Positions 28,508 through 50,687 of a DNA stretch of 64,000 nucleotides are shown piece after piece. The position numbers were made by a program, and so were the translations under genes. The notes under the pieces are model-generated. The model made no database searches and was not told where the DNA came from. It was given only the letters and a program-made list of their open reading frames with translations. The stretch is from an uncultured Candidatus Saccharibacteria bacterium. Lineage in GTDB: Bacteria > Patescibacteriota > Minisyncoccia > Phycocordibacterales > PALSA-1337. The DNA is taken from contig CAYIYK010000003.1 in the NCBI GenBank assembly GCA_964367745.1, positions 10,248-74,247 of the forward strand, given 5' to 3'. Each line of letters opens with the position of its first letter. The stretch's first letter is position 1.

Positions 28508-28540
28508 CCCTCACGTAAAAAGCGTGGGGGTCTTTTTATT
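28508..28540. terminator. Hairpin terminator (ccctcacg-taaaaag-cgtggggg + TCTTTTTATT) between convergent genes
   Basis: An 8 bp stem with one G-U pair is followed by a T-tract. It overlaps the stop of the minus-strand NeuC gene and lies 30 bp after the stop of the plus-strand membrane protein. Confidence 0.5.
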
Positions 28541-29693: not shown

Positions 29694-29696
29694 AGT

Positions 29697-30680: not shown

Positions 30681-30681
30681 T

Positions 30682-34312: not shown

Positions 34313-34383
34313 TTTATGATAAACAAGTATATCACAACAAAATATTGCTTCAATTAAGATTAAATTCTGATATACTGTCTCAA

Positions 34384-35520
34384 ATGGAAATAAAAATCGA
34401 TAAGGTCGCAAATCTAAGTGGCTGGAAATCATATACAGTAGACAATACTAATGATTTTATAACTATAAATGATTGCTTGTGTTGCAAAGGAAAACTAAAA
34501 GTTACAATTCGAAATAAAAATCAAACAGACGATACAAAGATTGATATTGGAACTTGTGTAAATTGTGGTTTTACAACCTATATTAATAAACCAAGTCACA
34601 AATGGATTATCGATTTCTACAATTCAACTTGGAATAAAGAAGAGGGTGAAGAGAATAATTTTGTAAATAAAGATCTACAATCTAGCAAACTAACAATAGC
34701 CCTAGAAAAAATAAATTTCCCAAAGAATGGTTCAATATGTGAAATCGGCACAGGAAGAGGCGGTAACTTTGCTGCGCTTATAAATAATGGTTATAACAAT
34801 CTTATTGGTGTAGAGAATTCAATACACAGAGCTGATACAGTGAGTAAAGCTCTAAATGATGTTCCTATATACACAGGAGGTTTTGAAGAAGAAAAAGTAC
34901 AAAATGCTCTAGCGAAACATGGAAGTTTCGATTTGATATACACTGCTCATGTAATGGAACATATTTATAATCCTGAAGAGACTATTGAACTATGTTCAAA
35001 ACTTCAGAATGAAAATGGTCATTTGATAGTCGCTGTGCCGAACTTCGTAGGTGAACCTAGTATAGGTATTTCTTCTTTCCTTCCCCATTTACATTCTTTT
35101 ACAAAAGAATCGATGATAAGACTTTTGAATAATAAAGGGTATCAAGTTATAGATGATAGTTACACTACAGAGTTTGAATTGTTTCTTATTGCTCAAAAGA
35201 AAAGTAATATTAATAAAAAACTAGATAATAAGACTGATTATATAAAACCTGCTCAAGACAAATTTATTAAAGAATTAAAATTGAATGAAATTCCCCTAAA
35301 TCAGTCTGTATTCTATTTTTTCTCTAAGAAAAATTATTCAGTATCTGGATATAAAATACTAAATAAAATATCAATAATAAAAACAATTCAAGCTATGTTT
35401 TTCAAATTCATTCAAAGAAAAAAAGGTTATAGATCTTTCGTATTTACTTTGATGAATAAAGATAAAAATCAACCAATTGTATTGAATTGGAAGAAATCTA
35501 TTATTCTTTTCTATAAATAA
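34384..35520 (+). CDS. Zn-ribbon SAM-dependent methyltransferase (paralog 3 of 3, divergent orientation, longer C-terminus); six-frame ORF begins at 34231 but likely start is 34384
   Basis: The Cys4 ribbon is CLCC...CVNCGFTTYINKPS and SAM motif I is CEIGTGRGG. The 34231 start would overlap the neighbouring divergent methyltransferase by about 200 bp. Confidence 0.6.
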   Translation: MEIKIDKVANLSGWKSYTVDNTNDFITINDCLCCKGKLKVTIRNKNQTDDTKIDIGTCVNCGFTTYINKPSHKWIIDFYNSTWNKEEGEENNFVNKDLQSSKLTIALEKINFPKNGSICEIGTGRGGNFAALINNGYNNLIGVENSIHRADTVSKALNDVPIYTGGFEEEKVQNALAKHGSFDLIYTAHVMEHIYNPEETIELCSKLQNENGHLIVAVPNFVGEPSIGISSFLPHLHSFTKESMIRLLNNKGYQVIDDSYTTEFELFLIAQKKSNINKKLDNKTDYIKPAQDKFIKELKLNEIPLNQSVFYFFSKKNYSVSGYKILNKISIIKTIQAMFFKFIQRKKGYRSFVFTLMNKDKNQPIVLNWKKSIILFYK

Positions 35521-36471
35521 TTAGAAATTATAGAATTTCGGCTCCTTCTTTATCTTATTTGAAACTGCGATTTTAGCTTCATTAGATAGTCCATTTGTAT
35601 CTAGTGATTTCGGATATTTATATAGTATAGGCCAAACAGATGCTGGAGAAGTGTATACACTTGTATACATGAATCTATTACTTGTCTTTGCATGACCGCC
35701 TCTATGCAAACCGCTTGTATCGCAGAATATTATTGTTCCAGCTTTACCTGTACACACAATTTTGTCTTCATTAGGAATTAAGGAATCCTGGCTTGCACTA
35801 CCTCGTGGTGGCTGTTGTGGTGATATATGTCTCCATTTACCGAAGATATGAGACTTTTTAACATAAATAAAAGGGCCAGCATTGTCATCAACATCATTTA
35901 GATAAAGGAACACTTTTACAAGTTGTTGATCTTCAGGATCTCTGTGCCACTCTTGTGATGCGTAACTTCTCATTCCTTCAGGCATAGGTACGGTCACTTG
36001 GAATCTCCAATCAAAAAACTTCATATACATTTTCATATATGCATTCACTGTTCCGAGAATTTGATTACTCAGACTCATTTTGGTGAGAGGATGTTTTAGA
36101 TCCAATATTCTCTCTCCATTCCAAAGATCGATCAAAAAGAAATTCTTACTTTTCAACTTGTCACCATCCAATAGATTACCTCTAGAGTCGTATCTTTCTT
36201 TAACGTCTTTATCATTCCATCGATTCTGTGCAATCTTCTCCAATTCAGCATATACGTGCTTTGGAAAAAGTTTATCGATATGACTTATTGCAATACCGTC
36301 TCTATTTAGATCTTCGACGATTTTCTTCTGTTCATCTGACAATTTATTTTCACTCTTTTTATAAAGTCTAATACTTGAGATATTTAGTAGAGTCCAGACA
36401 AATCGACTTGCTCTGATGCGATGATAAAAACGTGCGATTATACCTATAACACTTTTTATTATTTTCTTCAT
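35521..36471 (-). CDS. Phytanoyl-CoA dioxygenase (PhyH)-family Fe(II)/2-oxoglutarate-dependent oxygenase
   Basis: 316 aa. The HxD...H facial triad context fits: WHRD and GLHRGGHA. The protein size matches PhyH-like hydroxylases. Confidence 0.6.
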   Translation of the reverse strand: MKKIIKSVIGIIARFYHRIRASRFVWTLLNISSIRLYKKSENKLSDEQKKIVEDLNRDGIAISHIDKLFPKHVYAELEKIAQNRWNDKDVKERYDSRGNLLDGDKLKSKNFFLIDLWNGERILDLKHPLTKMSLSNQILGTVNAYMKMYMKFFDWRFQVTVPMPEGMRSYASQEWHRDPEDQQLVKVFLYLNDVDDNAGPFIYVKKSHIFGKWRHISPQQPPRGSASQDSLIPNEDKIVCTGKAGTIIFCDTSGLHRGGHAKTSNRFMYTSVYTSPASVWPILYKYPKSLDTNGLSNEAKIAVSNKIKKEPKFYNF

Positions 36472-36478
36472 AAATAAA

Positions 36479-37828
36479 TTAAATAATTTTTCCTAAAAAA
36501 TCGACATTTCTCTTATAAGACAAACCGTCTCTAAAGAAAATAAAATCATTGAATACTTTCTCTTGTTGCTTCTTTTTTACATCGTGATTTTTCAAACAAA
36601 TATTAACATGTTCAACGATATTATCGAAACTCTTTGAGAGAAAAACTGCATCAGCATCTACTATAGGTTTATAGTGACGGAAATTGTATGCTCTATGATA
36701 CTTTTCTGGATAATCTATATTTACAACTGGTTTTCCGAAGATAAAAGATTCAAGGGTCATTGTTGAAACGTAGTTTATAACTACATCAGAATATTTTAGA
36801 GTTAATTTTAGATTCAAAATATCATCTTCATGTATTTCAATTCTTGTACCCATTTCTTGTGAAAGTAACTTGCCTGGATATTCAACATGGAGATTTGGAA
36901 TTTTACTATCAATATATACTTTGAACTTATCAAACTCTTCTTTTGGATGCATTCGCACTAGAATATTGGGTTTACCATCGAATTTGCCTTGATCACGAGC
37001 TTTCAATAGTTCACCAAGAAGAATATCTTCATCAGGGTAATTCCCCTTTGTAACTGTAGTTATAAGTATTGTTTTTTCTTTTGGATTCAATCCTTTACTC
37101 AAAAGGAACGCTTCTCTAGACTGTTCACTTGGATTGTTTACAGAATAAGAGTCGAAACGCATTGTACCTGAGACAAATACATTATCTTCTGAATATCCAT
37201 ATTCTTTAACTGCGGTATTTTTTATTATTTTATTCCAAACGATTAGATAATCTGGTCTTCTAAAATGCATTCCTCCATTGTGAAGATTGTCCCAACTGAA
37301 GTTTACTGCAGCAGTCTTTATACCAAACTTCTTAGCATATATTATTGCTTCAGCATCAGGATGACTGAAGCCAGGAGTTGCTGTTAGAAACATAACTGGG
37401 TTGTATTCTTTAATCTTTTCTTCAAGAGCCTTTGATCTTGGTATAAAAATTTTCTCAAGTTTAGTAAATAAATCATTTGTCCAAAAAGATGCAGGGGCAA
37501 TGTAAGAAAAATACTTCAAAAATCTTCTTCTCCAATCCTTCATCCCCTTTTCTTTATTTCTTACAACCACTGGTTCAAAATCGTATTTACGGATTATTGA
37601 ATATCTAAAATATTTACCAAATAGATTCCAAAATCCTGGATTTTGTAATTTCCAAGGAACATAAGTCACATTTTCTGATTTAAAATATGGTTTATTATCT
37701 TCACAAAAAGCTTGTGGGGACATAAATACGACTACTTTGTATTTTGTTGATAAATACTTTATATAATCTGTACGCAAAAAATCTGATGAGTAAACAAAGT
37801 TCGAAATAAAAAGAAATATTGTTTTCAT
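36479..37828 (-). CDS. Surface-carbohydrate biosynthesis transferase-like protein (paralog 3 of 3); ORF extends to 37873, paralog-supported start MKTIF at 37828
   Basis: It shares the MKTIFLFIS start, the NFSWDNLHNGG block and the (I/V)W/FN motif with the other two paralogs. Confidence 0.45.
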   Translation of the reverse strand: MKTIFLFISNFVYSSDFLRTDYIKYLSTKYKVVVFMSPQAFCEDNKPYFKSENVTYVPWKLQNPGFWNLFGKYFRYSIIRKYDFEPVVVRNKEKGMKDWRRRFLKYFSYIAPASFWTNDLFTKLEKIFIPRSKALEEKIKEYNPVMFLTATPGFSHPDAEAIIYAKKFGIKTAAVNFSWDNLHNGGMHFRRPDYLIVWNKIIKNTAVKEYGYSEDNVFVSGTMRFDSYSVNNPSEQSREAFLLSKGLNPKEKTILITTVTKGNYPDEDILLGELLKARDQGKFDGKPNILVRMHPKEEFDKFKVYIDSKIPNLHVEYPGKLLSQEMGTRIEIHEDDILNLKLTLKYSDVVINYVSTMTLESFIFGKPVVNIDYPEKYHRAYNFRHYKPIVDADAVFLSKSFDNIVEHVNICLKNHDVKKKQQEKVFNDFIFFRDGLSYKRNVDFLGKII

Positions 37829-37873
37829 AGAAAGGTATTGTAGCATATATGTTATAATCCTTATTATTACCAC

Positions 37874-38992
37874 ATGAAAAAGCCTATTCTGCTACTCTGG
37901 ATAATTTCATCATGGATTCTCTATCCTTTTTTTAGTCTATCTTCAAAAATTAAGAGTAAGAAACTAGGTAAAAAGAAAAGGATACTTGTATTACCTCAGC
38001 TTTCTAGAATTGGGGACATCGTCTGTTCTACAGGCGTATTTTATAACATAAAAAAATCATATCCTGATAGTTATGTATCTGTACTAGTATCAAAGAGAGC
38101 ATTTGGAATTATAAAAAACAATAAAAGAATCGATAATTTTATTATTTATGAAGACTATTCTTTTTTTGGTTTAATAAATAAAATTAAATCAGAGAATTTT
38201 AACTATTCAATAAACCTCACAGCAACATCAATAAATACATGTTTAACACTTTGGAGTTGTATAGATCACAGAATAAAGACTGTGGTAGAAAATCCCCCGA
38301 TTACTGAGAGACTAACTGATTGTATGTCTAATCATCGATTGTTATACAAGAATCATACGTATTTACCGCTTCATCATATAAAGTTGTTGAATTTTATTGG
38401 AATAAATAATCCTGAAGATAAAAAAGAAATCTGGCTAAGTGATACAGCAGAAATAAAAGCGAATGATTTTGTTAAAAATCTTGGAGAAAATAAGAAAATA
38501 ATTGGAATAAGTATAACCGCAGGAAATAAAATAAAAGAACTCGGTGATGAGAGATTTGAAAAATTAATAAATAAACTATTAGAAAATAAAGAAAATATTG
38601 TTTGTTGTATAGGATCAAAAAACGATTCAGAAAGAATAGATAAAATAATATCAAGCGTAAATAATCCTCGTTTCATTAAAGCAACAGATTTTAACTTGGA
38701 AGAGTTACCATCTCTTATGAAAAGATTCTCACTTTATATAGCAGTTGATACAGGCCCTATTTATATCGCACATGCTCTGGGAGTACCTCTAATAGACATA
38801 ATAGGTCCAGTAGATCCGGATGAACAACCACCAAAAGACAGTAAGAGTATACGAATTCTTCCTAGAGGAGATATTAAGCCTAGTTCATTTGTATTTAAGA
38901 GACGTGGAACTCAAGATGAAATCATCTCAGCAATACAAAATACTGATATAAACGATATCTATAAAGCAGCAAGTATACTATTGAGTAAGTAG
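37874..38992 (+). CDS. Glycosyltransferase family 9 (heptosyltransferase-like)
   Basis: 372 aa. The N-terminal ILVLPQLSRIGDIVCSTGVFYNIKKSYPDSYVSVL and the C-terminal VDTGPIYIAHALGVPLIDIIGP match GT9 signature regions. Confidence 0.6.
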   Translation: MKKPILLLWIISSWILYPFFSLSSKIKSKKLGKKKRILVLPQLSRIGDIVCSTGVFYNIKKSYPDSYVSVLVSKRAFGIIKNNKRIDNFIIYEDYSFFGLINKIKSENFNYSINLTATSINTCLTLWSCIDHRIKTVVENPPITERLTDCMSNHRLLYKNHTYLPLHHIKLLNFIGINNPEDKKEIWLSDTAEIKANDFVKNLGENKKIIGISITAGNKIKELGDERFEKLINKLLENKENIVCCIGSKNDSERIDKIISSVNNPRFIKATDFNLEELPSLMKRFSLYIAVDTGPIYIAHALGVPLIDIIGPVDPDEQPPKDSKSIRILPRGDIKPSSFVFKRRGTQDEIISAIQNTDINDIYKAASILLSK

Positions 38993-40366
38993 ACCGTATC
39001 TAACAAACCATCCTCGAACTATTGATATTCCCTTTCGAAGGATTATTTTATCTTCTTCTTTGAAACCAAAGATAATTTTAAAATCAAAATGGAATCCTTT
39101 ATCCTGATTTTTTGTGTATATATAGTTTGCAATAACCATAATTAAAGGTACGAGTACAAATTCAAGAGACAATCCCCAAAGACCGATAATTGGTAGGGTA
39201 GAAACGATGAGACCAAGAGTCAAACTATTTCTTAATAGATGTAGAAAGAAAAGGTATTTTTGTTTTCGTAGTGCTATGAGATAGTTGCCGATTATGATTC
39301 CACTTGCAAATATTGGTAAATTCAAGAGCATAAAGTAGAACAATGGTATTGATTGTGCGTATTTTGAGAAGAAAGTATAGACGACTGGTGGCACGACAAC
39401 AATCGCTGATATAACCACCAATATACTTCCAAGTACAAAATATTTTATTCCATAAGAAAACATTTTTACCGATAGATGTTTGTCTTTTATCCAAAGTGGT
39501 ACGAGAGATTGCATTGTATTACTTGGAATTAGATCTTGAATAGTTGTAACAATAGTCTCTGCGATAGAATATATAGCCACTGCTTCTGTGCCAATGAAAA
39601 GTTTAACCAGCCAAGGTTTAACCCTGAAAGTTATTTTATTTATAAATTGTCGAAGCACATCCCAAGTACCATAGGTGGTGAAAATATTCCACAACAATAC
39701 ATTTGGAGTAGCTACAATATGACTCCATTTGAAATATACCTTGAAGAATTGATATGAAACTGCCAAAACACTGAGTGATGAAGCGATGATTATAGATAGT
39801 ATCAATTGTTTCAAACCAAGATTGCCTTGCAGGAAATAATAAATAAGTACAATAGATTGAATAGCTTTATTTATAGTATATCTCTGAGCAACTACTGAGA
39901 ACTTCAATCTGACTAGACATAGTAATCGTATAAGAACGAACAATCCTTCACTCAAAATCACAAAAGAAATCATTCTCATATCTTTTACGAAATCGATATC
40001 GTAAGATTTAAAGAAGTAAACTGAACCGAAGAATATTATTGCCCAAGCAATGAAAGTTATAACTATTCTAACCAAAGAATATTCTAAGAAAATTCTCTTT
40101 GCATCACTAAGTCTATTGTCAGCAATTGCTCGAGACATTTCATTTGAGATAATAGCTGAACCAAGATTCAAAACATCAGACGGTACACCTGAAAAAGAAA
40201 GTAGGAGTTGGAATACACCGTACTGATACAGGGTAAGAGATGTAATGGTTAAGAATGTATTCAATAGACCTATTGCCTTTGTCACAAGATTCCAAAAGGT
40301 TGAAATAGCTTCCCCTTTTAAGAAAATAGCCATAAATGACGGCTTTTTTTGAGTATTTGTATCCAT
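38978..40366 (-). CDS. Polysaccharide biosynthesis protein / Wzx-like flippase (MOP superfamily)
   Basis: 462 aa with about 12-14 TM helices. The size and topology are typical of Wzx/RfbX-type oligosaccharide flippases. Confidence 0.6.
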   Translation of the reverse strand: MDTNTQKKPSFMAIFLKGEAISTFWNLVTKAIGLLNTFLTITSLTLYQYGVFQLLLSFSGVPSDVLNLGSAIISNEMSRAIADNRLSDAKRIFLEYSLVRIVITFIAWAIIFFGSVYFFKSYDIDFVKDMRMISFVILSEGLFVLIRLLCLVRLKFSVVAQRYTINKAIQSIVLIYYFLQGNLGLKQLILSIIIASSLSVLAVSYQFFKVYFKWSHIVATPNVLLWNIFTTYGTWDVLRQFINKITFRVKPWLVKLFIGTEAVAIYSIAETIVTTIQDLIPSNTMQSLVPLWIKDKHLSVKMFSYGIKYFVLGSILVVISAIVVVPPVVYTFFSKYAQSIPLFYFMLLNLPIFASGIIIGNYLIALRKQKYLFFLHLLRNSLTLGLIVSTLPIIGLWGLSLEFVLVPLIMVIANYIYTKNQDKGFHFDFKIIFGFKEEDKIILRKGISIVRGWFVRYGLLTQ

Positions 40367-40389
40367 AACTCAATATACTATCATAAATT

Positions 40390-41814
40390 GTGATAACCAT
40401 ATATAATCTTAAAAAATACAATTTTATGAAAAATATATCCAAAAAGGCTTTCATTATCATATTTTTAATAATCGTATCCGTAAATTTCCTTTATGCTATA
40501 TCATATAAAATAAAACCAGCTGTAGATGCTGAAGCATATGATGAAATAGCGACAAATATCGTTGAACACGAACAGTACAGATCGAGCTTTAACGTTCCTC
40601 TAGAACTTGATGGTTCAATATCAAGAATCGGTCCTGGATATGAATTGTTCTTAGCTACAAATTATCTATTCTTTGGAAAACATTTTTGGATTATTTGGTT
40701 ATTCCAAGCAATACTTTATGCTTTGACTATTGTAATGCTTGGCTTGATGAGTCTAAAGTTATTCCCTGTTTTAAATCAAAACACAAAAATCCTTTATGGT
40801 TCGATGATTGTCTTTGGTCTACTTATCGATATTATTCAGTTGAATGCAATGATAATGACCGAATCCCTTTTCCTATTTCTTCTAACTCTTTCTTTCTTTA
40901 TTTGGTCACAAATTTACAATCATGATCCAAAGATAAAATATGGACTGTGGATTATCCTTGGTTTCGTCTTGGGATTGTTAACCCTTACAAGACCAACAGG
41001 TCTTCTAGTTTTTGTTTTATTAAGTGGAGCAACTATATATAGGAAAAAACTTGGTTCAATACTTGCAATATGCCTTATTGCTATTCCTTTTATCTTAATC
41101 CAAGTTCCTTGGTTTGTAAGAAATTATCATGTATATAATCAATTCATTTTTCACTCTAGTGCTGATGGTCTGAATTTCTTAAGTGGCAACTATCCCGGTA
41201 ATCATGGAGAATTTACTTCTGATTTCCCTTTTTATAAAGAATTAAAAGAGAAATACCCATCCCCAGTAGAATTAAATAGTGAAGCAAAGAAGTGGTATAA
41301 AGATTTTGTATTACATCACCCTATTCAAGCTACAAAAATACTAATTGAAAAAGCTTTAATATTCTTTTCACTTACCAAAACTTCTGGCTTTTGGTTCCAT
41401 TATTTTGGAAAGACTGATCAGATACTTACGATCCTCATATCAATATTTCAAAACTTTATAATACTTGGAAGTATTATATTGTATGGAACGATGGTTGTTA
41501 AAAGATGGATAAATAAACAATTCCTTCTACCAGACATATTCCTTGCTTCAACTTTTGTAGTATTAACAGTAACTCCAATAATTTCAGTTATAGCAAATAG
41601 ACATAGACTTCCACTAGTTATAATGTCTCTGCCTTTATTCGTCTATGTTGCATATATAATAAAAAATAACTTTAGAAAAATGAAATGGGAAATCGCTATT
41701 ACGATTCTTATCCTTATCGCAAGTACAGGTTTTGATCTATTCTTACAATTCGATAAATTCAAATCAAAGATACATTCAGTGAATAAAAATCCAGCAGAAA
41801 CAGTAACTAAATAA
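40390..41814 (+). CDS. GT-C fold membrane glycosyltransferase (ArnT/PMT/GT39/83-like)
   Basis: 474 aa, polytopic. The Asp-containing first periplasmic loop (PAVDAEAYDEIATNIVEHEQY) resembles GT-C DE/DD motif regions. Confidence 0.5.
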   Translation: MITIYNLKKYNFMKNISKKAFIIIFLIIVSVNFLYAISYKIKPAVDAEAYDEIATNIVEHEQYRSSFNVPLELDGSISRIGPGYELFLATNYLFFGKHFWIIWLFQAILYALTIVMLGLMSLKLFPVLNQNTKILYGSMIVFGLLIDIIQLNAMIMTESLFLFLLTLSFFIWSQIYNHDPKIKYGLWIILGFVLGLLTLTRPTGLLVFVLLSGATIYRKKLGSILAICLIAIPFILIQVPWFVRNYHVYNQFIFHSSADGLNFLSGNYPGNHGEFTSDFPFYKELKEKYPSPVELNSEAKKWYKDFVLHHPIQATKILIEKALIFFSLTKTSGFWFHYFGKTDQILTILISIFQNFIILGSIILYGTMVVKRWINKQFLLPDIFLASTFVVLTVTPIISVIANRHRLPLVIMSLPLFVYVAYIIKNNFRKMKWEIAITILILIASTGFDLFLQFDKFKSKIHSVNKNPAETVTK

Positions 41815-41817
41815 TTT

Positions 41818-43476
41818 ATGATTAAGAAAATTATAAAACACCCATTAAGTTATATATTACTTTTTGCTTTTTTAATTCGTATAGTAATGATCAAATACGG
41901 TTTGCCATTCTGGCTATACAATGACGAACCACCTTTTGTACTTACAACACTGAAGATGTTCCAACTAAAAACACTGTTACCAGTGTTACATGAAGCTGAT
42001 TTCAAGCCTTTCATGTATTACCCTCCTTATATTAGTTATCTATATATTCCCTTCTTTTTATTTTCTATAGCACTATCATGGATTGGTTTTGATGGAAACC
42101 TTAGTGAGTTACAGAATGTCTTGGCTAGTGATCCTTCTATATTTTTCATAACAGCGAGAGTAATAATGATTTTTATTAGTATATTAACAATTTATTTAAT
42201 ATATAAAATAACTCAATCATTAACTCAAAGTAAGACAGCATCACTTTATTCTGCAATCCTTTCTTCAACAAGTTTAATGTTTATAAGTCTTTCAATCACA
42301 GGCAAACACTGGGTACCAATACTTTTCTTTTATACACTTTGTCTTTTTATACTTACACGTCCGAATTGGTCTATTAAAAAGAGATATATATTGTCAGCAG
42401 TTACTATTGGTATCGGAACTGGTGTAGGTACTGTGGTGATTCTTTTTTCAGTTGTTATTTTCCTTTGGTATATAACGTACGATAAAGTAAGTATGAAAGA
42501 AAGTTTGACTAGCTTACTTATGTACAAACTAGGTTTTATCGTAGTTATTTTATCTTTTATTCCAGTTCTTCTTTATCCTGCAAGTCTTGGTTTCGTACCA
42601 GACACAACATTACATGGAGGTAAAACTCTTTTAGGATTCATAACTAGTCCTTTTGTCTTTCCATTCCCTTTTATCGCCACGGAACCAGTTTTGGTATTAC
42701 TTAGTCTTATTGGTTTATATCTCGGTTTTAAAAAATACAAACCATTCTATATAACATCTATCATTTTTACAGTGTTTTACAGTATGATATTCTATGTATT
42801 TTTCAGATTCGAATACCGTTTCCTTTTACCTCTTGTATTGTTCTTAATAGTTGGATCAGCAATAGGAATAAATGAGATTAGGAATAAATACCCAAACAAA
42901 TATTCTAAAGCATTTATTTATCTAATTCTTCTAATCCCAATATTATTCTCTTTGAGACTTAGTTATCTTGGTTATGTAAATGATTCAAGAATAAAAGCAA
43001 AAGAATGGTTGAATGCCAATACCGAAGCTGATGACAAAGTTATCGTCTATGCAAACCTTATGAGAATAGCGAATAATAAAAATGGAATATTGGAACAAGA
43101 ATTCATCGATTCTAGATCATTGAGGACAAATGATAAAAACATGTTGAATATTCGAGACGGTTTGATAAAAGAGAAGACATTCCACGCTTTAAATCTATAT
43201 ACAGTTGAGAACGACAATTTCTACAAAATGATTGATGTTTATGCAAAAAAGAATGGCTATAAATATCTAATATTTAGTAAAAAAGATTTCTTAGATAAAT
43301 CTGAACAGTTTGAGTATGTTAAAAATCTTACAAAAGATGCTAAACTTATGGCAAGCTATGGTAATAATGAGAGTAACTATTCCCTATCAAAAACAGACAT
43401 TGGACCTAATTTATTACCTTTCTTTAGAATAAATGAATTCGGACCAGAGATAGAGATATATAAATTGAATAACTAA
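41818..43476 (+). CDS. GT-C fold membrane glycosyltransferase (ArnT/PMT-like), second copy with soluble C-terminal domain
   Basis: 552 aa with about 11 N-terminal TM helices and a first loop reading LYNDEPPF. The roughly 170 aa C-terminal domain is hydrophilic. Confidence 0.5.
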   Translation: MIKKIIKHPLSYILLFAFLIRIVMIKYGLPFWLYNDEPPFVLTTLKMFQLKTLLPVLHEADFKPFMYYPPYISYLYIPFFLFSIALSWIGFDGNLSELQNVLASDPSIFFITARVIMIFISILTIYLIYKITQSLTQSKTASLYSAILSSTSLMFISLSITGKHWVPILFFYTLCLFILTRPNWSIKKRYILSAVTIGIGTGVGTVVILFSVVIFLWYITYDKVSMKESLTSLLMYKLGFIVVILSFIPVLLYPASLGFVPDTTLHGGKTLLGFITSPFVFPFPFIATEPVLVLLSLIGLYLGFKKYKPFYITSIIFTVFYSMIFYVFFRFEYRFLLPLVLFLIVGSAIGINEIRNKYPNKYSKAFIYLILLIPILFSLRLSYLGYVNDSRIKAKEWLNANTEADDKVIVYANLMRIANNKNGILEQEFIDSRSLRTNDKNMLNIRDGLIKEKTFHALNLYTVENDNFYKMIDVYAKKNGYKYLIFSKKDFLDKSEQFEYVKNLTKDAKLMASYGNNESNYSLSKTDIGPNLLPFFRINEFGPEIEIYKLNN

Positions 43477-44240
43477 TGAAAATCACGATAATAATACCAA
43501 CATACAATGAGGGTGAAGCAATCGGTAATCTTCTCGATGCGGTTATTGCTGAGACAAAGGAAATAAAGAATCATATATTTTCTATTCTTATCGTTGACGG
43601 GAATTCAAAAGACAATACTCAAGAGAATGTTAGAAACAAATCAAATAAATACAACAATATAAAACTAATTGTTGAAAAAAGTAAATGCGGTCTTGGGAAT
43701 GCGTATCTAGAAGGAATGAATTATGCAATAAACAATCTTGGTGCGGATGCCTTCATGGAATTTGATGGTGATTTCCAGCACAATCCAAAAGATATAAAGA
43801 AGTTGGTAGAAAAACTAGATCAAGGATACGAATATATAATCGGATCAAGATATATAAAAGGAGGAACGATTCCAAAAGAATGGCCTTGGTACAGGAAAGC
43901 TATTAGTTCATTCGGAAATATCGTTATAAGTATAGGATTAAGACTTGGTATAAATGATGCAACTTCAGGATTCAAACTATCAAGAGTTGGTAAATTCAAA
44001 GACTCGATGCCATTAAAACAAGGACAATTGATCTCTCTTCGACATGCATATAAGATCCATTTTCTTTATAATATAGTAAAAGCTGGAGCAAAAACAGTAG
44101 AAGTTCCCATAGAATTCTTGAATCGAAATAAAGGAATATCAAAGAGTACTTTCGAAGATATTATAGAATCATTAAGAGTTGTCTTTGTTTTGATTATCAA
44201 AGGTAGAAACAACAGCATTGTTTTTAAAAATAAATCTTGA
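43476..44240 (+). CDS. GT2 polyprenyl-phosphate glycosyltransferase (DPM1/GtrB/ArnC-like)
   Basis: 254 aa starting MKITIIIPTYNEGEAIGNLL. It has the VDGNSKDNT and DGDFQHNP (DxD region) motifs typical of dolichyl/undecaprenyl-phosphate sugar synthases. Confidence 0.75.
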   Translation: MKITIIIPTYNEGEAIGNLLDAVIAETKEIKNHIFSILIVDGNSKDNTQENVRNKSNKYNNIKLIVEKSKCGLGNAYLEGMNYAINNLGADAFMEFDGDFQHNPKDIKKLVEKLDQGYEYIIGSRYIKGGTIPKEWPWYRKAISSFGNIVISIGLRLGINDATSGFKLSRVGKFKDSMPLKQGQLISLRHAYKIHFLYNIVKAGAKTVEVPIEFLNRNKGISKSTFEDIIESLRVVFVLIIKGRNNSIVFKNKS

Positions 44241-44603
44241 ATAGATAAAGTAACTACTGATAGCAAGTAAACCTGAAGCTAGTATTTGACTTAGGAAATA
44301 GTGAATATGGAAGTGATCTACAAATAAATACATTAAAAGTGTATTCACACCAAGATTTACGCTTGAGACAATAAAATAAATAGTTGTTTGTTTGTGAACA
44401 TCTTCGATACTTTTATCCTGAAATGTCCAGAACTTTTGCAATATAAAACTAACAGAGAATGCTATTAGGAAAGCAAGAATTGCTGAAATCAAATAATTTA
44501 TCTTAAAAATATCAACAAAAATAGCTAGGAAGGCCAAGTTAACAACCGCTGCAGTTCCACCAGATATTATATATTTTATTGTCTTAATTATTTTGGTTCT
44601 CAT
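44172..44603 (-). CDS. GtrA-family small membrane protein (polyprenyl-P-sugar flippase-like)
   Basis: 143 aa with 4 TM helices. The N-terminal motif IKYIISGGTAAVVNLAFLAIFV is typical of GtrA. Confidence 0.7.
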   Translation of the reverse strand: MRTKIIKTIKYIISGGTAAVVNLAFLAIFVDIFKINYLISAILAFLIAFSVSFILQKFWTFQDKSIEDVHKQTTIYFIVSSVNLGVNTLLMYLFVDHFHIHYFLSQILASGLLAISSYFIYSRFIFKNNAVVSTFDNQNKDNS

Positions 44604-45289
44604 TGCTTAACAATCACGCACTGACCAACTGTAGTAACTATTGGAATTTCCTTTTTATCAATCAAGAATTCATCTAAAGCTTTTTTAACTCCTGGAGTAT
44701 TCTTGCCCATATAGTCATCGAAAAATATGAATCCCCCTTTTAACATCTTTGGATAGAAGAAGTTCAACGAATCAAGAGTTGATTGATAAATATCAACATC
44801 AATATAGACAAAAGAGAAATTCTCACTTTGTGCTGGAGCACTTGTATCTGGGAAAAATCCTGGGCAAAAAACTATGTCCTTTGCATCTTTAAAAATCTCT
44901 TTTACACCTTCTAAAGAAGTATTTATAAAATCACCTTCTTTATGTAAATCTATCTCTTCATTTACCTTTGGCATTCCTTTGAAAGTATCGAAAAGATAAA
45001 ACTTCTTACCATTTCCTTCTTTTGCATGAGCTATTAGTCTCGCAGACCCACCACGAAATACTCCTACTTGCGCCATCGCTCCAGGGAAGCGTTTTGCTTG
45101 TCTTGCAAACTGCCAAAGCATAAACAATCTATCTCTTTCAAGCATTGTATATGGACTTACTTTTTTGTAAGCATTCTCAAAATCATTATCCTTTGCCCAA
45201 GAGATAAAATCCATTCTTACATCTGTACGAGTAATGGTATAGCCTGTTTTATCAATTATTTTTTTAATTAAATCTTTTATTTTTTTCAT
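44600..45289 (-). CDS. TylF/MycF (macrocin-O-methyltransferase) family sugar O-methyltransferase
   Basis: 229 aa containing the TylF-like blocks MAQVGVFRGGSARLIA and FYLFDTFKGMP. Confidence 0.7.
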   Translation of the reverse strand: MKKIKDLIKKIIDKTGYTITRTDVRMDFISWAKDNDFENAYKKVSPYTMLERDRLFMLWQFARQAKRFPGAMAQVGVFRGGSARLIAHAKEGNGKKFYLFDTFKGMPKVNEEIDLHKEGDFINTSLEGVKEIFKDAKDIVFCPGFFPDTSAPAQSENFSFVYIDVDIYQSTLDSLNFFYPKMLKGGFIFFDDYMGKNTPGVKKALDEFLIDKKEIPIVTTVGQCVIVKQ

Positions 45290-45879
45290 TTTGTTGCGTA
45301 TAAATAATAACCGTAAGTTGTTGTCTTTTTTGCAGTACCAAAAATCTTATCCAAAATAGTTGATAATGGATGCAAAATAAATTTCAATTTATGTTGCATT
45401 GGAAAGAAGAAAGATAAGGTCTTAAAGTATCCTCCAGCTTTTATAAGTTCAACCTTAGAAAAGCCTTCGAACATAAATAATAACGAATCATCGAAGAATC
45501 TCCAATAGTCAGGATATGAGCCTTTTCTTGCATGGTATGGATATATAGAAGGAACATAAACAAATATCTTACCTCCCTTTTTCAATACCCTTTTTAGCTC
45601 CAAAACTGCTCTTATAGGGTCTTTTACATGCTCTAGCACCGAACTACATATAACAGCGTCTACACTTTCATCCTTTAATGGTATAGCGTGTATATCACCG
45701 ATAACATCTGCACCCGTATGTGCATCATAATCCATTGTCTTGTAATCACAGTTCTTAAATAGATCCTTATAAGGTTCTAGCCATTTCTGGAATCGATCGC
45801 CTCCACCAATATCTAATACGATCTTTTCTTTACTTATCAAAACCATCTTTTCATCTACAAATTTTTGATAGTGTGTCAT
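45286..45879 (-). CDS. Class I SAM-dependent methyltransferase (Methyltransf_11-like)
   Basis: 197 aa. Motif I is LDIGGGD and the post-II region is VDAVICSSVLEHVKDP. Confidence 0.7.
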   Translation of the reverse strand: MTHYQKFVDEKMVLISKEKIVLDIGGGDRFQKWLEPYKDLFKNCDYKTMDYDAHTGADVIGDIHAIPLKDESVDAVICSSVLEHVKDPIRAVLELKRVLKKGGKIFVYVPSIYPYHARKGSYPDYWRFFDDSLLFMFEGFSKVELIKAGGYFKTLSFFFPMQHKLKFILHPLSTILDKIFGTAKKTTTYGYYLYATK

Positions 45880-45883
45880 ATAT

Positions 45884-46573
45884 TTATTTTGTAAATCTTG
45901 TTCTTATAATAGTACCGAGAATCATAAATCCGTGCTTCCAATTTATTTTCTTACCTTCTGAATAACTTCGTGGGTTGTAATGTATTGGTACATCTACAGT
46001 CTTATATCCCATTTTCAAAGCCTTACAAACCAATTCATTCTCATAATCAAAACTATTTGCTTTAACATCGATTTTTCTTGCTAATTCTTTTGTTATGGCT
46101 TTATAACATCCTTCATATTCACCTGCATGATTTAAGTATAAAATATTTGTAAGCCAAGTTATAGTGAAGTTCCCTATTGTACCAAGGAAATAAAGTACTT
46201 TTCTCCCCGTATGTCTATCTTCTATTCTAACCCCTAGAGTCACTTCAGTTTTACTATCAAGTATAGGTTGAATAACCGCTTTAAAATCATTTGGATCATA
46301 TTCTAGATCTGCATCTTGTATTATAAAAATATCTCCTGTTGCTTCTTTGAAGCCTTTTTTAACAGCTGCACCTTTTCCAGGAATAGTTTCTTTAAAAACC
46401 CTAACTCCTTGTATTGAACTAGCGATGTTGTAAGTATTATCTTTTGAATTGTTATCGACAACAATAATCTCTTTTTCGATATTCCCAATATCCGCCTTTT
46501 TTACCAATTCTACTATCTTTTGAATTGTCTTTTCTTCATTGTATGCAGGAATAACGATGGAAAGTTTTTTCAT
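45884..46573 (-). CDS. Glycosyltransferase family 2
   Basis: 229 aa. Motifs LSIVIPAYNEEKTI, VDNNSKDNT and QDADLEY form the DxD region. Confidence 0.7.
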   Translation of the reverse strand: MKKLSIVIPAYNEEKTIQKIVELVKKADIGNIEKEIIVVDNNSKDNTYNIASSIQGVRVFKETIPGKGAAVKKGFKEATGDIFIIQDADLEYDPNDFKAVIQPILDSKTEVTLGVRIEDRHTGRKVLYFLGTIGNFTITWLTNILYLNHAGEYEGCYKAITKELARKIDVKANSFDYENELVCKALKMGYKTVDVPIHYNPRSYSEGKKINWKHGFMILGTIIRTRFTK

Positions 46574-47709
46574 AATTTTTTAACTATTATAACATCTTTA
46601 ACTATAGATATATGGGTATCAGTAACTACATCCCATGATTGATTTAATGGCAATGAATTGACGATTTCTATCATGTTTGGATAGAGTTTTTTATCAAACA
46701 TATTTAATATTTTATTCTCCAATTCCTTTTTATCAAATGGATCAAATAAGAACTCTTCTGGCAAGACAACAGATAGACCGTTTCCTTTTGTAAGTAGTAC
46801 CGGTTTGCCCAAAGAAAGAGATTCGAGTATAAAGTTTGGATTGAATTCTGAAAGAGCTGGTCCAATACATACAGTTGAATTTCTAATATAATCAAATAAT
46901 TCATTTTGAGGAACTGAATTCTTAAAGATTACAATTTCTTTCATTGATAATTTATCTACCAAATCAACTAATTTATTTTTATCTGGACCACTACCAACCA
47001 AGATAAACTTTCCCTTACCGATCTTTTTTACTACATTATTAAAAACTTTGATCACTAATTCTAGATTTTTATAACTAACGAATCTTCCAGCAAAAAGTAG
47101 TGTTGGTATATCCTGTATTTGAGAATTAGACTTTTCTTTTCTTACTACAGGATTCTTAACTATTACAATTTTATCTTGATTTGCATCGTAATAATTTATA
47201 TAAAAATCTTTAAAAAATTGACCGTAAACTATTATTTTATCTGCTTTTTTTATAATAAATCTTATTAGTTTATAAAGTATTGGTTTATCAATTCTATATA
47301 ATCCTTGTTTATAGTAATCATCAATAGTTATAAACCTCTTCCCCATTTCTACTGTCCTTTCCCAAATAGGATCACCCCCAATTCTTATAATAAATGGCTT
47401 TCTAAAGATAATAGATGCCAAGCAAGCAGGTAAGCCGGCAGCAGTTGGATCAAAAGCATAAATTGCTTTACTACCAATACCCTTACACATAACAATAAAA
47501 TAGTATGTTAACCATTGCAAAACCTTAGGCAAACGTCTCGATACTCGAATAACTTTGAATGGAAATTTCTTATTTGTCTTATCATCTCCATAAGCAAGTA
47601 CAGTTACATCGAAACCATTAGCCTGTAAAGCCTCAGCAATTTTCTGTACATGTATAGCGGGACCTCCAACATCAGGATAAAAAATTCCAGCTGCAAATAA
47701 GATTTTCAT
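46570..47709 (-). CDS. Glycosyltransferase family 4 (GT-B)
   Basis: 379 aa. The N-terminus MKILFAAGIFYPDVGGPAIHVQKIAEAL matches Glyco_trans_4, and the C-terminal region matches Glycos_transf_1. Confidence 0.7.
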   Translation of the reverse strand: MKILFAAGIFYPDVGGPAIHVQKIAEALQANGFDVTVLAYGDDKTNKKFPFKVIRVSRRLPKVLQWLTYYFIVMCKGIGSKAIYAFDPTAAGLPACLASIIFRKPFIIRIGGDPIWERTVEMGKRFITIDDYYKQGLYRIDKPILYKLIRFIIKKADKIIVYGQFFKDFYINYYDANQDKIVIVKNPVVRKEKSNSQIQDIPTLLFAGRFVSYKNLELVIKVFNNVVKKIGKGKFILVGSGPDKNKLVDLVDKLSMKEIVIFKNSVPQNELFDYIRNSTVCIGPALSEFNPNFILESLSLGKPVLLTKGNGLSVVLPEEFLFDPFDKKELENKILNMFDKKLYPNMIEIVNSLPLNQSWDVVTDTHISIVKDVIIVKKL

Positions 47710-47754
47710 ATTTTAATATTGTCACCTTAATAATATTGCTATACTATATCAAAC

Positions 47755-48663
47755 ATGGATAAAAAACTAAATGTCGCAATAATCGGTATAGGTAAATGGG
47801 GTAAGAACCTAACTGAAGCTTTTTTGAGACAAGGTGCAAATATTAAATACTGTTTTAATAAAGGTTCAATAGAAAATGTAAAATGGTTAAAAGAAAAGCA
47901 TCCTGATATTGAACTAGCTTCAAGCTATGAAGATATTCTTTCAGACAAAACAATTGATTCAATAATAGTTGCTACTCCTATAAAGACTCACTTTGAAATT
48001 ACAAAAAAGGCTTTGCTAGCAAAAAAAAATGTTTTTCTTGAAAAACCTGGAACTGAGACTGTGGAAGAATTGGAAGAACTCAAAAAACTTCATGTAGATA
48101 ACGATCTAATACTTACTGTTGGTTATATTTTTGTACACCATCCAGTCTGCACATATATTAAAAAACTACTAAATAACGAGAAAATAATTAGTATACATTT
48201 CGAATGGAATAAATGGGGATCATTCGGAGAGGATATAATACTTAATCTTTTTTCACATGAGATTTCATTATTAAAAACTTTTGGTATAGATATTGAAGAA
48301 AAGACGATAAGTTTCGAAACCCATTCTCATATTTCTGAAAAAGATATTGTTGTATTTAATGCAGAGGGTAAAAATGGAGAAAAAATAACAATAAATATAA
48401 ATAGAGTGAGTTTGGATAAGAAAAAAACAGTCACTATTAAAACTAATAAGAACTCATACATTTGGCTAAATAATGAATTAAAAATTATTAATATGGATCA
48501 GATTAATACAAACATTGAAGTATCAAATGTGCCAGCATTAGATATTGAAGTTGCAAATTTTATATCTAATATACAAAACAAAAATAAGCCTTTAGTTGAT
48601 CTGGATTTTTCAATAGATGTACTTAAAACTACTTCTTTTTTATTAGATTCAAAACATCCTTAG
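47755..48663 (+). CDS. Gfo/Idh/MocA-family NAD(P)-dependent oxidoreductase
   Basis: 302 aa. The N-terminal Rossmann segment NVAIIGIGKWGKN and the EKP motif (VFLEKPGTE) are present. Confidence 0.6.
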   Translation: MDKKLNVAIIGIGKWGKNLTEAFLRQGANIKYCFNKGSIENVKWLKEKHPDIELASSYEDILSDKTIDSIIVATPIKTHFEITKKALLAKKNVFLEKPGTETVEELEELKKLHVDNDLILTVGYIFVHHPVCTYIKKLLNNEKIISIHFEWNKWGSFGEDIILNLFSHEISLLKTFGIDIEEKTISFETHSHISEKDIVVFNAEGKNGEKITININRVSLDKKKTVTIKTNKNSYIWLNNELKIINMDQINTNIEVSNVPALDIEVANFISNIQNKNKPLVDLDFSIDVLKTTSFLLDSKHP

Positions 48664-49675
48664 CTGCTTGAACACAGTTCCCTATTTTCCCAGAAAAAAC
48701 TTGTATTAGACGCTTATTTAACTTACTTACAATAGTTGGCCTTTCATCTGTCTTATCTTTATTTGGTAGTACCGTTCTTATTGTATACATTGAACCTATA
48801 TGTTCTGCTTTTGCCATATCGGGAATTATTTCTGAAGCAGATTTAAGAAATTTTTTGATATTTGTAATAGAAGGATCCTTAATTATCCCTTTATTTAAAA
48901 ATGGAACAATTTTTTTTGGAATCTTTGGAAAGGATCCGTTGTTTGTAGAATGTATAGCATGAACGACATTACCCATCACATGCATATCAGTCCTACCGTA
49001 AGGATCGATACAGAAAAATGGCCCATCTAAAATAACTATACTTTTTTTATTATATTCTTTAGGTAGTTTTATTAAGGGTTTTTCACAAACTTCAAATTGA
49101 TACTCATTGTGATTATCTTTGTTTTCTATAACAGAATTTAGATTGGCATAAGTACAATTTATAATATAATCATAATCATTTGAATTATTTGAAAAGCTTG
49201 TATTTAAAAATTGTTTTACTTTATTTTTATAAAGACGATTACTAACTATTTCTTTAAGTTTAGCGTGATCTATAATCGATTCTTTAACCCTAACGGATAG
49301 TTCGATCTTGTCTTTCTTTGCATGAGGCAAATCAACTATTTCAAAATCTAAATCACATCTTTTACAAAAATCCATGAATTGTTTAGCGGAAACCTTACTT
49401 CCTTGTGATGCTATACAATAATAATGCTCATTATCATTCACTACAGAATCTTTATACTCTTTTCTAAAAGAATTCTCTGAGTCACGAGAAGAAATAGCGG
49501 TCTCATCACTTCTTGGATAATGATAACCAACATGCAACCTAAACTGATTTGCACCAGATGCACCCATCAATATATCTGATTCTCTCTCAAAAATTTCAAC
49601 CTTAAAACCTTTTTCAGCAAGCTTGATAGCTACAGTAGTTCCAAATATTCCAGCTCCGACAACTGCGATTTTCAT
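48629..49675 (-). CDS. FAD-dependent oxidoreductase (DAO-like)
   Basis: 348 aa. The N-terminal FAD dinucleotide-binding motif is MKIAVVGAGIFGTTVAIKLAEKGFKVEIFE. Confidence 0.65.
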   Translation of the reverse strand: MKIAVVGAGIFGTTVAIKLAEKGFKVEIFERESDILMGASGANQFRLHVGYHYPRSDETAISSRDSENSFRKEYKDSVVNDNEHYYCIASQGSKVSAKQFMDFCKRCDLDFEIVDLPHAKKDKIELSVRVKESIIDHAKLKEIVSNRLYKNKVKQFLNTSFSNNSNDYDYIINCTYANLNSVIENKDNHNEYQFEVCEKPLIKLPKEYNKKSIVILDGPFFCIDPYGRTDMHVMGNVVHAIHSTNNGSFPKIPKKIVPFLNKGIIKDPSITNIKKFLKSASEIIPDMAKAEHIGSMYTIRTVLPNKDKTDERPTIVSKLNKRLIQVFSGKIGNCVQAAKDVLNLIKKK

Positions 49676-49676
49676 T

Positions 49677-50687
49677 CTATTTTATTATCTTAAAAAGCTT
49701 GTCTGACAAAATAGACAATGAATGCTTGTTTGAAAAATCACTTAGTCTAGACAAAATATCCAATCGCTCTTTTTCAGAATAATTCATAACTCTCTCAATT
49801 TTATTTTTTAATTCATCTGTATCCCCTTGTTTAAAAATCAAATCATCACTTATTTCTCCTCTCAAATTATCATTTGAAGCAATAACAATACAACCACAAG
49901 CCATAGCCTCAAATATTGTCTTATCATACATTCCACTTGAAGATAGATTTATAAAAATTTCGTATTTAGAATATAGATCTATAGTTTCAATATTTGGAAC
50001 TCCTTTATGAAATTCTATTAATCCAGAAGATTTATTTTTTAATTCTTCATAATAAATTTTATCTTTTTCGATTGGATCACCGTAGACTGCAACTTTGATA
50101 CTTGGATCATTTATTTTATTTATTACATCTACTAAAACATGAATATTTTTTGAAGGTGATATTCTACCTATAGACAATATAGATTTTCCTAATCTAGTTA
50201 TATTTTTATTCGGTTTAAAGTTTTCTAAATCTACACCTACTGGCATTATTTCAGTCTTTCTGTATTTTGCTGTATATGAAAACTTAGATGTGCAAAACAC
50301 CTTTTTACAGAACATTGAAGCTATATCAGTAAGCATTGAACCTGAATGATGATTCCTCCACATGTATATATTCTTATTCATGATCTTCCACATAACTCCA
50401 GCGAGTAAGATATACTCTTGGTTCATATGAACAAAAACACTGTTGTATTCATTTCTCAATCGCCAAATATATTTATAAAAATTTAAAATATATTTTATCT
50501 TTGATTCCCCTTTTTCTTTACCCAAAGAAAATACTCTAACATTTTTAGGTAAATCGTATTCGCCTTTATAAAGACATATTACATTTACACTTTCATAGTT
50601 TTCTGAGAAAACTCTTACCCAATTATGAAAAAAGCCTAGTACAGGATCATTTTTATCAATCTTTTGAGTTATGATTAATAATTTCAT
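49677..50687 (-). CDS. Glycosyltransferase (GT4-like, GT-B)
   Basis: 336 aa. The C-terminal half matches Glycos_transf_1 (EAMACGCIVIAS). Confidence 0.6.
   Translation of the reverse strand: MKLLIITQKIDKNDPVLGFFHNWVRVFSENYESVNVICLYKGEYDLPKNVRVFSLGKEKGESKIKYILNFYKYIWRLRNEYNSVFVHMNQEYILLAGVMWKIMNKNIYMWRNHHSGSMLTDIASMFCKKVFCTSKFSYTAKYRKTEIMPVGVDLENFKPNKNITRLGKSILSIGRISPSKNIHVLVDVINKINDPSIKVAVYGDPIEKDKIYYEELKNKSSGLIEFHKGVPNIETIDLYSKYEIFINLSSSGMYDKTIFEAMACGCIVIASNDNLRGEISDDLIFKQGDTDELKNKIERVMNYSEKERLDILSRLSDFSNKHSLSILSDKLFKIIK

Follow-up and report, generated by a model that had tools for sequence, protein, structure and literature searches.

Gene content and operon layout

We analyzed a 64-kb stretch of contig CAYIYK010000003.1 (the window), whose nearest genome is an uncultured Candidatus Saccharibacteria metagenome-assembled genome (MAG; 97 % identity for protein A, see below), with regard to a set of genes that most likely load sugars onto a membrane lipid and attach them to molecules outside the cell. 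An earlier note, made from the sequence alone, had described four open reading frames (ORFs) here, namely those of two large membrane proteins of the GT-C type (A and B), a family 2 glycosyltransferase (GT2a) and a small GtrA-like protein, and all four were found at the coordinates given.

A, B and GT2a form an operon on the plus strand. The ORF of A reaches back to a GTG at 40390 (40390..41814, 474 aa), but translation probably begins at the ATG of position 40426 (40426..41814, 462 aa), since homologues have 462 aa and align from Met13, and since the interval from the GTG to the ATG contains a TATAAT-like box. The TAA of A is followed after 3 nt by the ATG of B (41818..43476, 552 aa), which consists of a PMT_2-type membrane domain and a C-terminal domain, and B and GT2a (43476..44240, 254 aa; PF00535, 1e-24) overlap in the sequence TAATG.

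The GtrA-family protein (44172..44603, 143 aa; PF04138, 3.8e-25) is encoded on the minus strand as the last gene of a separate operon, which converges on GT2a with a 3′ overlap of 69 bp (44172..44240). The first gene of this operon encodes a GT4 glycosyltransferase (46570..47709; PF00534, 8.6e-21), followed by a second family 2 glycosyltransferase, GT2b (45884..46573, 229 aa; PF00535, 9e-30), a Methyltransf_11 methyltransferase (45286-45879; PF08241, 3.6e-15) and a TylF-type O-methyltransferase (44600-45289; PF05711, 7.7e-26). Most junctions are ATGA overlaps, including that between the coding regions of GT4 and GT2b. Both methyltransferases, which have counterparts in related loci and whose probable role is sugar methylation, sit between GT2b and GtrA. 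The earlier note had given the family and coordinates of GtrA correctly, without its strand and its separate operon. With GtrA in a different operon on the opposite strand, the locus does not form a gtrABC-style cassette.

Upstream of A, and divergent from and abutting it, lies a gene for a Wzx-like (Polysacc_synt) multi-pass membrane protein (38978..40366, minus strand; PF01943, 2.5e-7, 30.9 bits, above the cutoff). A promoter scan of the module returned fewer promoter-like sites than in shuffled sequences, and a terminator scan found no terminator-like site between GT2a and GtrA. Rfam and tRNA scans of the window gave no matches, and family scans showed no phage genes near the module.

A and B are predicted GT-C glycosyltransferases

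A search of solved structures with models of A and B superposed both proteins on GT-C enzymes, and the same search led us to reject an identity as transporters or other non-glycosyltransferase proteins. ArnT was the top fold match for A and the second for B, with a sequence identity of 9-13 %. The scores of ArnT and ALG12 equalled or exceeded those of the protein mannosyltransferases (PMTs), and a GPI-mannosyltransferase and PimE were also matched; these fold scores do not separate acceptor classes. At the level of protein families, the PMT_2 search that had been recommended gave a divided answer: Pfam PMT_2 (PF13231) did not match A and scored 23.2 bits with B, under the cutoff of 26.1, while 17 of 29 full-length members of family A (best 2.6e-16) and 30 of 33 of family B (best 4e-11) did match; by transitivity, A and B would be members as well. 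An oligosaccharyltransferase identity (STT3/AglB/PglB) was rejected, as neither protein carries a WWDxG motif and no STT3 Pfam match was obtained for A, B or their family members. Likewise, the YfhO Pfam family and the MIR domain found no match in A, B or the family members.

A conserved acidic motif in the first loop, which the earlier note had expected of GT-C enzymes, is present in both proteins. Among 29 family A sequences, D34 of A is invariant; it lies within VD34AEAY38DEIA, directly after the first transmembrane (TM) segment, TM1, and where the first outer-loop helix starts. In B, D36-E37 are invariant in 33 family B sequences and are part of NDEPPF, again directly after TM1. These residues would be placed on the outer face of the membrane, given the Lys-rich N-termini of both proteins and the excess of acidic residues in the first loop of A (9 D/E versus 4 K/R). 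The VDAEAYDEIA of A, which we take to resemble the 'DETRYAEI' motif of ArnT, served as a lead and not as a test. With regard to their C-terminal parts, A has no soluble domain, and B ends in a conserved, putatively extracytoplasmic alpha/beta domain (about residues 388-552).

The two GT-C genes had been regarded as duplicated copies. A recent tandem duplication was rejected, since BLASTP detected no pairwise similarity (E 0.5), and the relation between A and B is seen at the profile level only (hhalign 96.7 %, E 3e-10, over the membrane core). A and B are ancient paralogues that have been maintained as a pair. With the family A profile, 76,770 cluster representatives were recovered at E<=1e-3, a number that falls to 8,626 at E<=1e-30, and family A is best described from these searches as a branch of a very large superfamily, not as a new family.

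Further architectures and occurrences of A-like domains came to light in these searches. A giant multidomain protein of 3051 aa in the representative library (P0335) holds an embedded family A GT-C at residues 2087-2532, and several proteins of 600-890 aa contain one or two A-like domains. Family A GT-Cs with 31-33 % identity were also found on MAG contigs labelled uncultured Gammaproteobacteria (L017, L019 and L020), often beside a second A-like GT-C, and in L017 an A-like domain is part of an open frame of 1172 residues. Mis-binning, a truly wider distribution or horizontal transfer could account for these loci.

GT2a and GT2b resemble soluble polyprenyl-phosphate sugar synthases

For both family 2 enzymes, the best match among solved structures was the dolichyl-phosphate mannose synthase (DPMS) of Pyrococcus furiosus (5mlz), with 1e-26 over residues 1-240 of GT2a, for which ArnC ranked next, and 8e-17 over residues 3-211 of GT2b. 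GT2a carries DGD at residues 97-99, aligned to the DAD of 5mlz, and GT2b carries one DAD at residues 87-89. Neither protein (254 and 229 aa, respectively) contains a hydrophobic or TM segment or a QxxRW motif. The possibility that GT2a is a processive synthase was rejected on the basis of its DPMS-like alignment and of the lack of QxxRW and of a TM channel; in this respect, the DPMS-type assignment made previously for this 254-aa soluble, DPMS/Ppm1-like protein was correct.

GT2a belongs to a family that is large in Patescibacteria (702 matches at E<=1e-10). Among its top 120 relatives, 118 are stand-alone proteins of 236-267 aa, and the source names of its relatives are 'polyprenol monophosphomannose synthase' or 'dolichol-phosphate mannosyltransferase'. 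Its best NCBIfam model was PpgS, with 72.6 bits (cutoff 370), followed by PgfS with 69 bits (cutoff 500). GT2b was matched best by AglJ (TIGR04182; 1.8e-34, 119.5 bits versus a cutoff of 325) and also, below the cutoff, by a haloarchaeal dolichyl-phosphate hexose transferase model. On these grounds, GT2a is a candidate soluble DPM1/Ppm1-type polyprenyl-phosphate sugar synthase, and GT2b is classified by its matches as a soluble DPMS/AglJ-like GT2.

Both enzymes are without membrane attachment in cis, as they have neither the C-terminal TM helices of GtrB and ArnC nor the GtrA-like domain of type-III DPMS. They are similar in this to type-I DPM1 and mycobacterial Ppm1-D2, both of which depend on a partner.

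GtrA, its overlap with GT2a and its fusions

The GtrA-family assignment is supported by a full-length match to PF04138 (88.8 bits, cutoff 26.1; model positions 1-117 of 117), and the hydrophobic stretches of the protein span residues 11-61 and 77-95. The convergent overlap between GT2a and GtrA is shared by several Saccharibacteria: it is kept at 69 bp in L005-L008 and measures 81 bp in L010 (13752..13832) and 75 bp in L011 (8190..8264). In L009, L012 and L014, GtrA converges on GT2b instead of GT2a, and in L009 the overlap is of a few bp (2 bp between stop-to-stop frames, 8 bp between called ORFs). Antisense or transcriptional-interference coupling through these overlaps is possible.

In other Patescibacteria, the two domains are joined in one protein. 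A GT2a-type enzyme with a C-terminal GtrA domain is encoded in L001 (32 %/2e-23 to GT2a and 29 %/9e-12 to GtrA of the window). P0183 and P0212 are further fusions of this kind, 59 % identical to GT2a, in which the TM domain starts right after an ESLRVVF motif; GT2a of the window ends 17 residues beyond this motif. Furthermore, a fusion of about 473 aa in L024 (15720..17159, minus strand) combines an N-terminal GtrA/DPMS-TM domain (4e-31 to GtrA of the window) with a GT4 domain (Glycos_transf_1). The latter architecture is unusual and suggests that GtrA-type domains may act as membrane anchors for GT-B enzymes.

Type-III DPMS enzymes have a GtrA-like TM domain and may flip the product themselves (PMC12992685). 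For the GtrA family, a translocation role has been proposed, which is disputed for some members and has been challenged for mycobacterial Rv3789 (PMC12992685). The fusions to GT2 and GT4 domains and the lack of a membrane segment in both GT2s of the window argue that GtrA would be at least a membrane partner of cytoplasmic glycosyltransferases. Translocation of a lipid-phosphate sugar by GtrA has been proposed, and the fusions would fit a role as anchor or partner at least as well.

GT2b, A and B form the conserved core

In order to compare the module with its relatives, we profiled the ORFs of 25 related loci with the hidden Markov models of A and B, searched for the other components with phmmer and read the gene tables; a component is called absent when it is absent from the fetched locus with its 8-10 kb flanks. 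Apart from the nearest genome, the relatives belong to Saccharibacteria, Paceibacterota, Liptonbacteria and Uhrbacteria. Close relatives retain the exact layout, including the 69-bp overlap, which indicates that the gene arrangement is not due to chance. Linkage of A and B persists down to 32-48 % identity, and over the whole range between 97 % and 32 % identity, every locus with B also has an A-family GT-C and a GT2b homologue. In nine loci (L003, L004, L010, L011, L015, L016, L023, L024 and L025), GT2b lies directly upstream of an A-type gene, and some of these have no B, GT2a or GtrA at all.

The earlier note had spoken of a complete four-gene module. As GT2b, which lies outside the range that it covered, is found in every locus with B, and GT2a and GtrA are often absent, the conserved core instead consists of GT2b, A and B, with GT2a and GtrA as accessories in the version present here. 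The Wzx-like gene adjoins A in all Saccharibacteria loci; in L001/L013, it is found 0.4 kb downstream of B. PMT_2-type GT-Cs, arranged in tandem or clustered and numbering two to four per locus, are a repeated feature of these Patescibacteria clusters. The second GT-C of L003/L004 was considered as a truncated B and rejected, since its similarity is limited to a remote one in the PMT_2 core. In all four distant family B loci (L022-L025), a gene for an asparagine-synthase-like protein (GATase_7 plus Asn_synthase, 575-622 aa), which may be a sugar amidotransferase, stands beside the GT-C and GT2 genes.

The surrounding glycan island

The module sits in a glycan island of approximately 30 kb, with a GC content of 30.5 % (28536..53944) compared to 34.3 % and 35.0 % in the flanks, a drop that is typical of variable or exchanged surface-polysaccharide loci. 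The island contains a Wzy_C+TPR protein, a NeuB-SAF-NeuA fusion, a UDP-GlcNAc 2-epimerase, three TagF-like proteins, a GT9, the Wzx-like protein, many methyltransferases, two oxidoreductases and four full-length GT4s; a fifth GT4-related gene matches the GT4 N-terminal domain only.

At the left edge of the island, 20711..22957 (minus strand) encodes a protein of 748 aa that combines a Wzy_C domain with TPR repeats at its C-terminus. Being O-antigen ligase/polymerase/PglL-like, it could be a polymerase, a ligase or an O-oligosaccharyltransferase. About 0.8 kb to the left of this gene, 18642..19925 (minus strand) encodes a 427-aa fusion of a DedA/VTT domain (40-166) and a PAP2 phosphatase domain (295-410). 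DedA proteins have been put forward as flippases for the recycling of undecaprenyl phosphate, and some PAP2 enzymes are undecaprenyl-diphosphate phosphatases; the fusion could be a one-protein module for recycling of the lipid carrier. A single protein of 626 aa (24432..26312, minus strand) unites NeuB (nonulosonic acid synthase), SAF and a CMP-transferase (CTP_transf_3/NeuA). Together with the nearby UDP-GlcNAc 2-epimerase (28536-29693), it suggests that the surface glycan of this Saccharibacterium may contain a sialic-acid-like sugar.

Further to the right, 29697..35520 holds two TagF-like (Glyphos_transf) genes between three methyltransferases of 327-429 aa with long N-terminal extensions ahead of a Methyltransf_23 domain. 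This stretch is followed by a PhyH-like dioxygenase (35521-36471). Right of the island, a VirD4/TraG-like coupling ATPase (53949-55823, minus strand) precedes a type IV pilus cluster 10 kb from the module. The cluster, likewise on the minus strand, encodes a pilin with an N_methyl motif (57496-57975), PilC (58086-59294), a PilT-like ATPase (59303-60361), a response regulator (60382-60768), PilB with MshEN (60792-62507) and PilO (62883-63458).

Proposed mechanism

The reading that we favor agrees with the general mechanism put forward in the earlier note, i.e., a polyprenyl-phosphate-sugar donor and an extracytoplasmic transfer by GT-C enzymes. On the cytoplasmic face, GT2b, as the conserved partner, and GT2a, as an accessory of this lineage, would transfer a sugar from a nucleotide sugar to polyprenyl monophosphate. 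GtrA would serve as a membrane dock or partner for the GT2s and/or as a translocator of the lipid-phosphate sugar, a role that is probable because neither GT2 has a membrane segment. The lipid-phosphate sugar might reach the outer face via GtrA, via the Wzx-like protein, which may flip either a lipid-linked glycan or the lipid-phosphate-sugar donor, or unaided. There, the first-loop carboxylates of A (D34) and B (D36-E37) would take part in the transfer of the sugar to acceptors; that both proteins may use polyprenyl-phosphate sugars is suggested by the linkage of their genes to DPMS-like GT2 genes. GT2b might supply A, and GT2a might supply B. The acceptor would most likely be the surface glycopolymer of the island, to which A and B would each add a decoration of its own, with site, linkage or sugar setting the two apart.

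We hold the mechanism class as such with good confidence. The whole reading, which comprises polyprenyl-phosphate-sugar synthesis, GT-C transfer, the island glycopolymer as acceptor and two decorations, we put at an even chance.

Several observations weigh against this reading. Firstly, GT2a and GT2b reach none of the NCBIfam equivalog cutoffs that would fix their sugar (PpgS, PgfS, AglJ, ArnC or Dol-P-hexose transferase), and a lipid phosphate as their acceptor is suggested by their nearest relatives. Secondly, no sequence profile, whether built from single sequences, from the families or from the most PMT-like members, reached a solved GT-C, which means that the catalytic equivalence of D34 and D36-E37 would follow from their position, their invariance and the fold. 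Moreover, the window contains no initiating phosphoglycosyltransferase of the WecA/MraY type (PF00953) or the WbaP type (PF02397), and hence the pathway to the acceptor polymer is incomplete here; the initiating enzyme may be located outside the window. With regard to gene linkage, GT2a is missing from the fetched loci of L009, L012, L014 and L022-L024 although B is present, which weakens a strict pairing of GT2a and GtrA with B, and GtrA is missing from the majority of the distant loci; both may thus not be dedicated to A or B. Finally, the GtrA-GT4 fusion of L024 does not fit a simple role of GtrA as donor flippase.

Alternative acceptors and pathways

The foremost alternative is protein O-glycosylation, in which A and/or B, like PMTs or PgfM/PgtC, would transfer a hexose from a polyprenyl-phosphate sugar to Ser/Thr of surface or secreted proteins, for example type IV pilins or adhesins. 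The earlier note had suggested an O-mannosylation of this kind for surface proteins or pili, which the pilus cluster leaves possible without lending it specific support. This alternative is compatible with the PMT fold matches and with the pilus genes nearby, but ArnT and ALG12, which act on lipid or glycan acceptors, score as high as PMTs or higher, and neither the MIR domain nor the YfhO family was matched. In addition, a search of the window for Ser/Thr-rich proteins gave none, the ~8-kb flanks of the related loci contain no called pilus or adhesin genes, and in all lineages examined the module is co-inherited with polysaccharide-type genes (GT4s, Wzx, TagF-like). Given the TagF-like enzymes, Wzx, Wzy_C, NeuB/NeuA and many GT4s nearby, a surface glycopolymer is at least as likely a target as a protein, and we consider protein O-glycosylation unlikely.

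A second alternative follows the haloarchaeal Agl pathway. In the N-glycosylation of Haloferax (AglJ/AglD/AglR/AglS), small GT2s charge polyprenyl monophosphate with hexose, a Wzx-like flippase takes part and a GT-C adds the final sugar from the lipid-phosphate sugar, the AglD/AglR/AglS steps being the model for this last addition. By analogy, GT2b would prime polyprenyl phosphate, the GT4s would extend it, Wzx would flip the product and one GT-C or the Wzy_C protein would transfer it en bloc, while the other GT-C would add a final sugar from a donor made by GT2a/GtrA. The coupling of GT4 to GT2b and the missing initiating enzyme speak for such a pathway, although that enzyme may simply lie beyond the window. 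On the other hand, the AglJ score of GT2b (119.5 bits) is far under the 325-bit cutoff, the WWDxG motif of oligosaccharyltransferases is not found, and A and B are PMT_2-type by sequence, a family whose characterised members use monosaccharide-phosphate-lipid donors. We regard this pathway as improbable. The steps of Haloferax are similar to the present case in that the best curated match of GT2b is AglJ, and differ from it in the bacterial host, the score below the cutoff and the lack of an AglB/STT3-type motif.

A comparably low probability is given to a proposal in which A and B are obligate partners in a heteromeric GT-C complex, comparable to Pmt1-Pmt2 and EmbA-EmbB, and constitute with GT2b a Patescibacteria-wide machine without a dedicated flippase. 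GtrA would then be a general dock for GT2 and GT4 enzymes instead of a flippase, and a possible target would be pilins or adhesins required for epibiotic life. Least probable of all is a lipid acceptor, in which A and/or B would decorate a membrane glycolipid or a lipoteichoic-acid-like anchor, as do ArnT for lipid A, PimE for phosphatidylinositol mannosides (PIMs) and GtlB/YfhO for lipoteichoic acid: the rank of ArnT among the fold matches, those to the GPI-mannosyltransferase and PimE, the TagF-like glycerophosphotransferase genes of the island and a soil Saccharibacterium reported to have PIM-type genes and three DPM-synthase-like genes (PMC6031116) are in its favor, but the fold scores are uninformative as to acceptor class, the neighborhood of the module yielded no genes for lipid-anchor synthesis, and the mechanism class would be the same as in our preferred reading, with the acceptor alone differing.

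Comparison with characterized systems

The type of system proposed here is well known in other bacteria, and its mechanism class is textbook knowledge. Gram-positive multi-component transmembrane glycosylation is represented by GacI/J/K/L of Streptococcus pyogenes, CsbB/GtcA/YfhO of Bacillus subtilis, Staphylococcus aureus and Listeria, and CsdAB/CD/EF with CflA of Lactococcus lactis (PMC8035078). As envisaged for the window, a GT-A enzyme supplies C55-P-sugar and a GT-C passes the sugar on to a wall polymer outside the membrane, with the involvement of a TM partner (GtrA-type or other) and/or a Wzx-type flippase. The GacI/GacJ variant is alike in its soluble GT-A, separate small membrane protein and Wzx-type flippase (PMC8035078), and in L. 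lactis several GT-A/GT-C pairs share one GtrA-type protein (PMC8035078), as two GT2s and two GT-Cs stand beside one GtrA here. By contrast, the GT-Cs of the window belong to the PMT_2 type and not to the YfhO/GtlB/GacL type, they are two distinct proteins whose neighboring genes are inherited together as a fixed pair, the GtrA gene is convergent and overlaps at its 3′ end, and the host is a Patescibacterium. The host was described in the earlier note as a cell-wall-reduced organism, a view at odds with Saccharibacteria as its nearest relatives, which possess Gram-positive-type peptidoglycan.

The gtrA-gtrB-gtrC(type) cassettes of Shigella and Salmonella phages, which serve O-antigen glucosylation, share with the locus the classes of GtrA-family protein, GT2 lipid-phosphate-sugar synthase and GT-C (PMC11127046). 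However, GtrB has C-terminal TM helices, which GT2a and GT2b do not, and instead of a co-directional three-gene cassette we found two convergent operons with two GT-Cs and two GT2s and no prophage context; loci with multiple GT-Cs are known elsewhere (PMC11127046). Type-III DPMS (PfDPMS, 5mlz) is the best solved relative of GT2a and GT2b over the catalytic domain, including DxD, and its GtrA-like TM domain (PMC12992685) is paralleled by the GT2a homologues fused to a GtrA domain in Patescibacteria. Here, in contrast, the catalytic part and the GtrA-type part are encoded by two genes that lie on opposite strands, and we assign no mannose specificity to the GT2s of the window; GtrA-family proteins in general are reported to lack the polar-pocket residues of PfDPMS (PMC12992685).

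ArnC/ArnT (with ArnE/F), which modify lipid A with aminoarabinose, differ in several respects: no lipid A is expected in this monoderm lineage, the identity to ArnT is as low as given above, and the module has no matches to the sugar-modifying enzymes of the Arn type (ArnA/B/D). The Pgf operon of Streptococcus mutans (PgfS, PgfE, PgfM1 and PgfM2) likewise combines one GT-A lipid-phosphate-sugar synthase with two different GT-Cs (PMC12041528), and PgfS is the second-best NCBIfam match of GT2a, albeit with 69 bits versus the 500-bit cutoff. PgfM1 and PgfM2, however, are YfhO-type, and the Pgf locus encodes adhesin substrates, whereas the window encodes no Ser/Thr-rich substrate.

Significance

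Glycosylation in Saccharibacteria and the candidate phyla radiation (CPR) has not been studied experimentally, according to a recent paper on pili (PMC11623550), and some previous genome papers mention DPM-synthase-like genes in passing (PMC6031116). Against this background, the analysis makes a modest addition with the triad of GT2b, A and B, which turns up repeatedly in large glycan clusters across Patescibacteria. The GtrA architectures, both split and fused (GtrA-GT2 and GtrA-GT4), bear on the debate whether GtrA proteins are flippases or membrane partners. The value of the analysis lies mainly in annotation and in the starting point that it offers for experiments, with D34, D36-E37, GT2a, GT2b and GtrA as defined targets for genetics in naturally competent cultivated strains. 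Surface structures, including those encoded by extracellular polysaccharide genes, are important for the epibiotic growth of these bacteria (PMC10633639).

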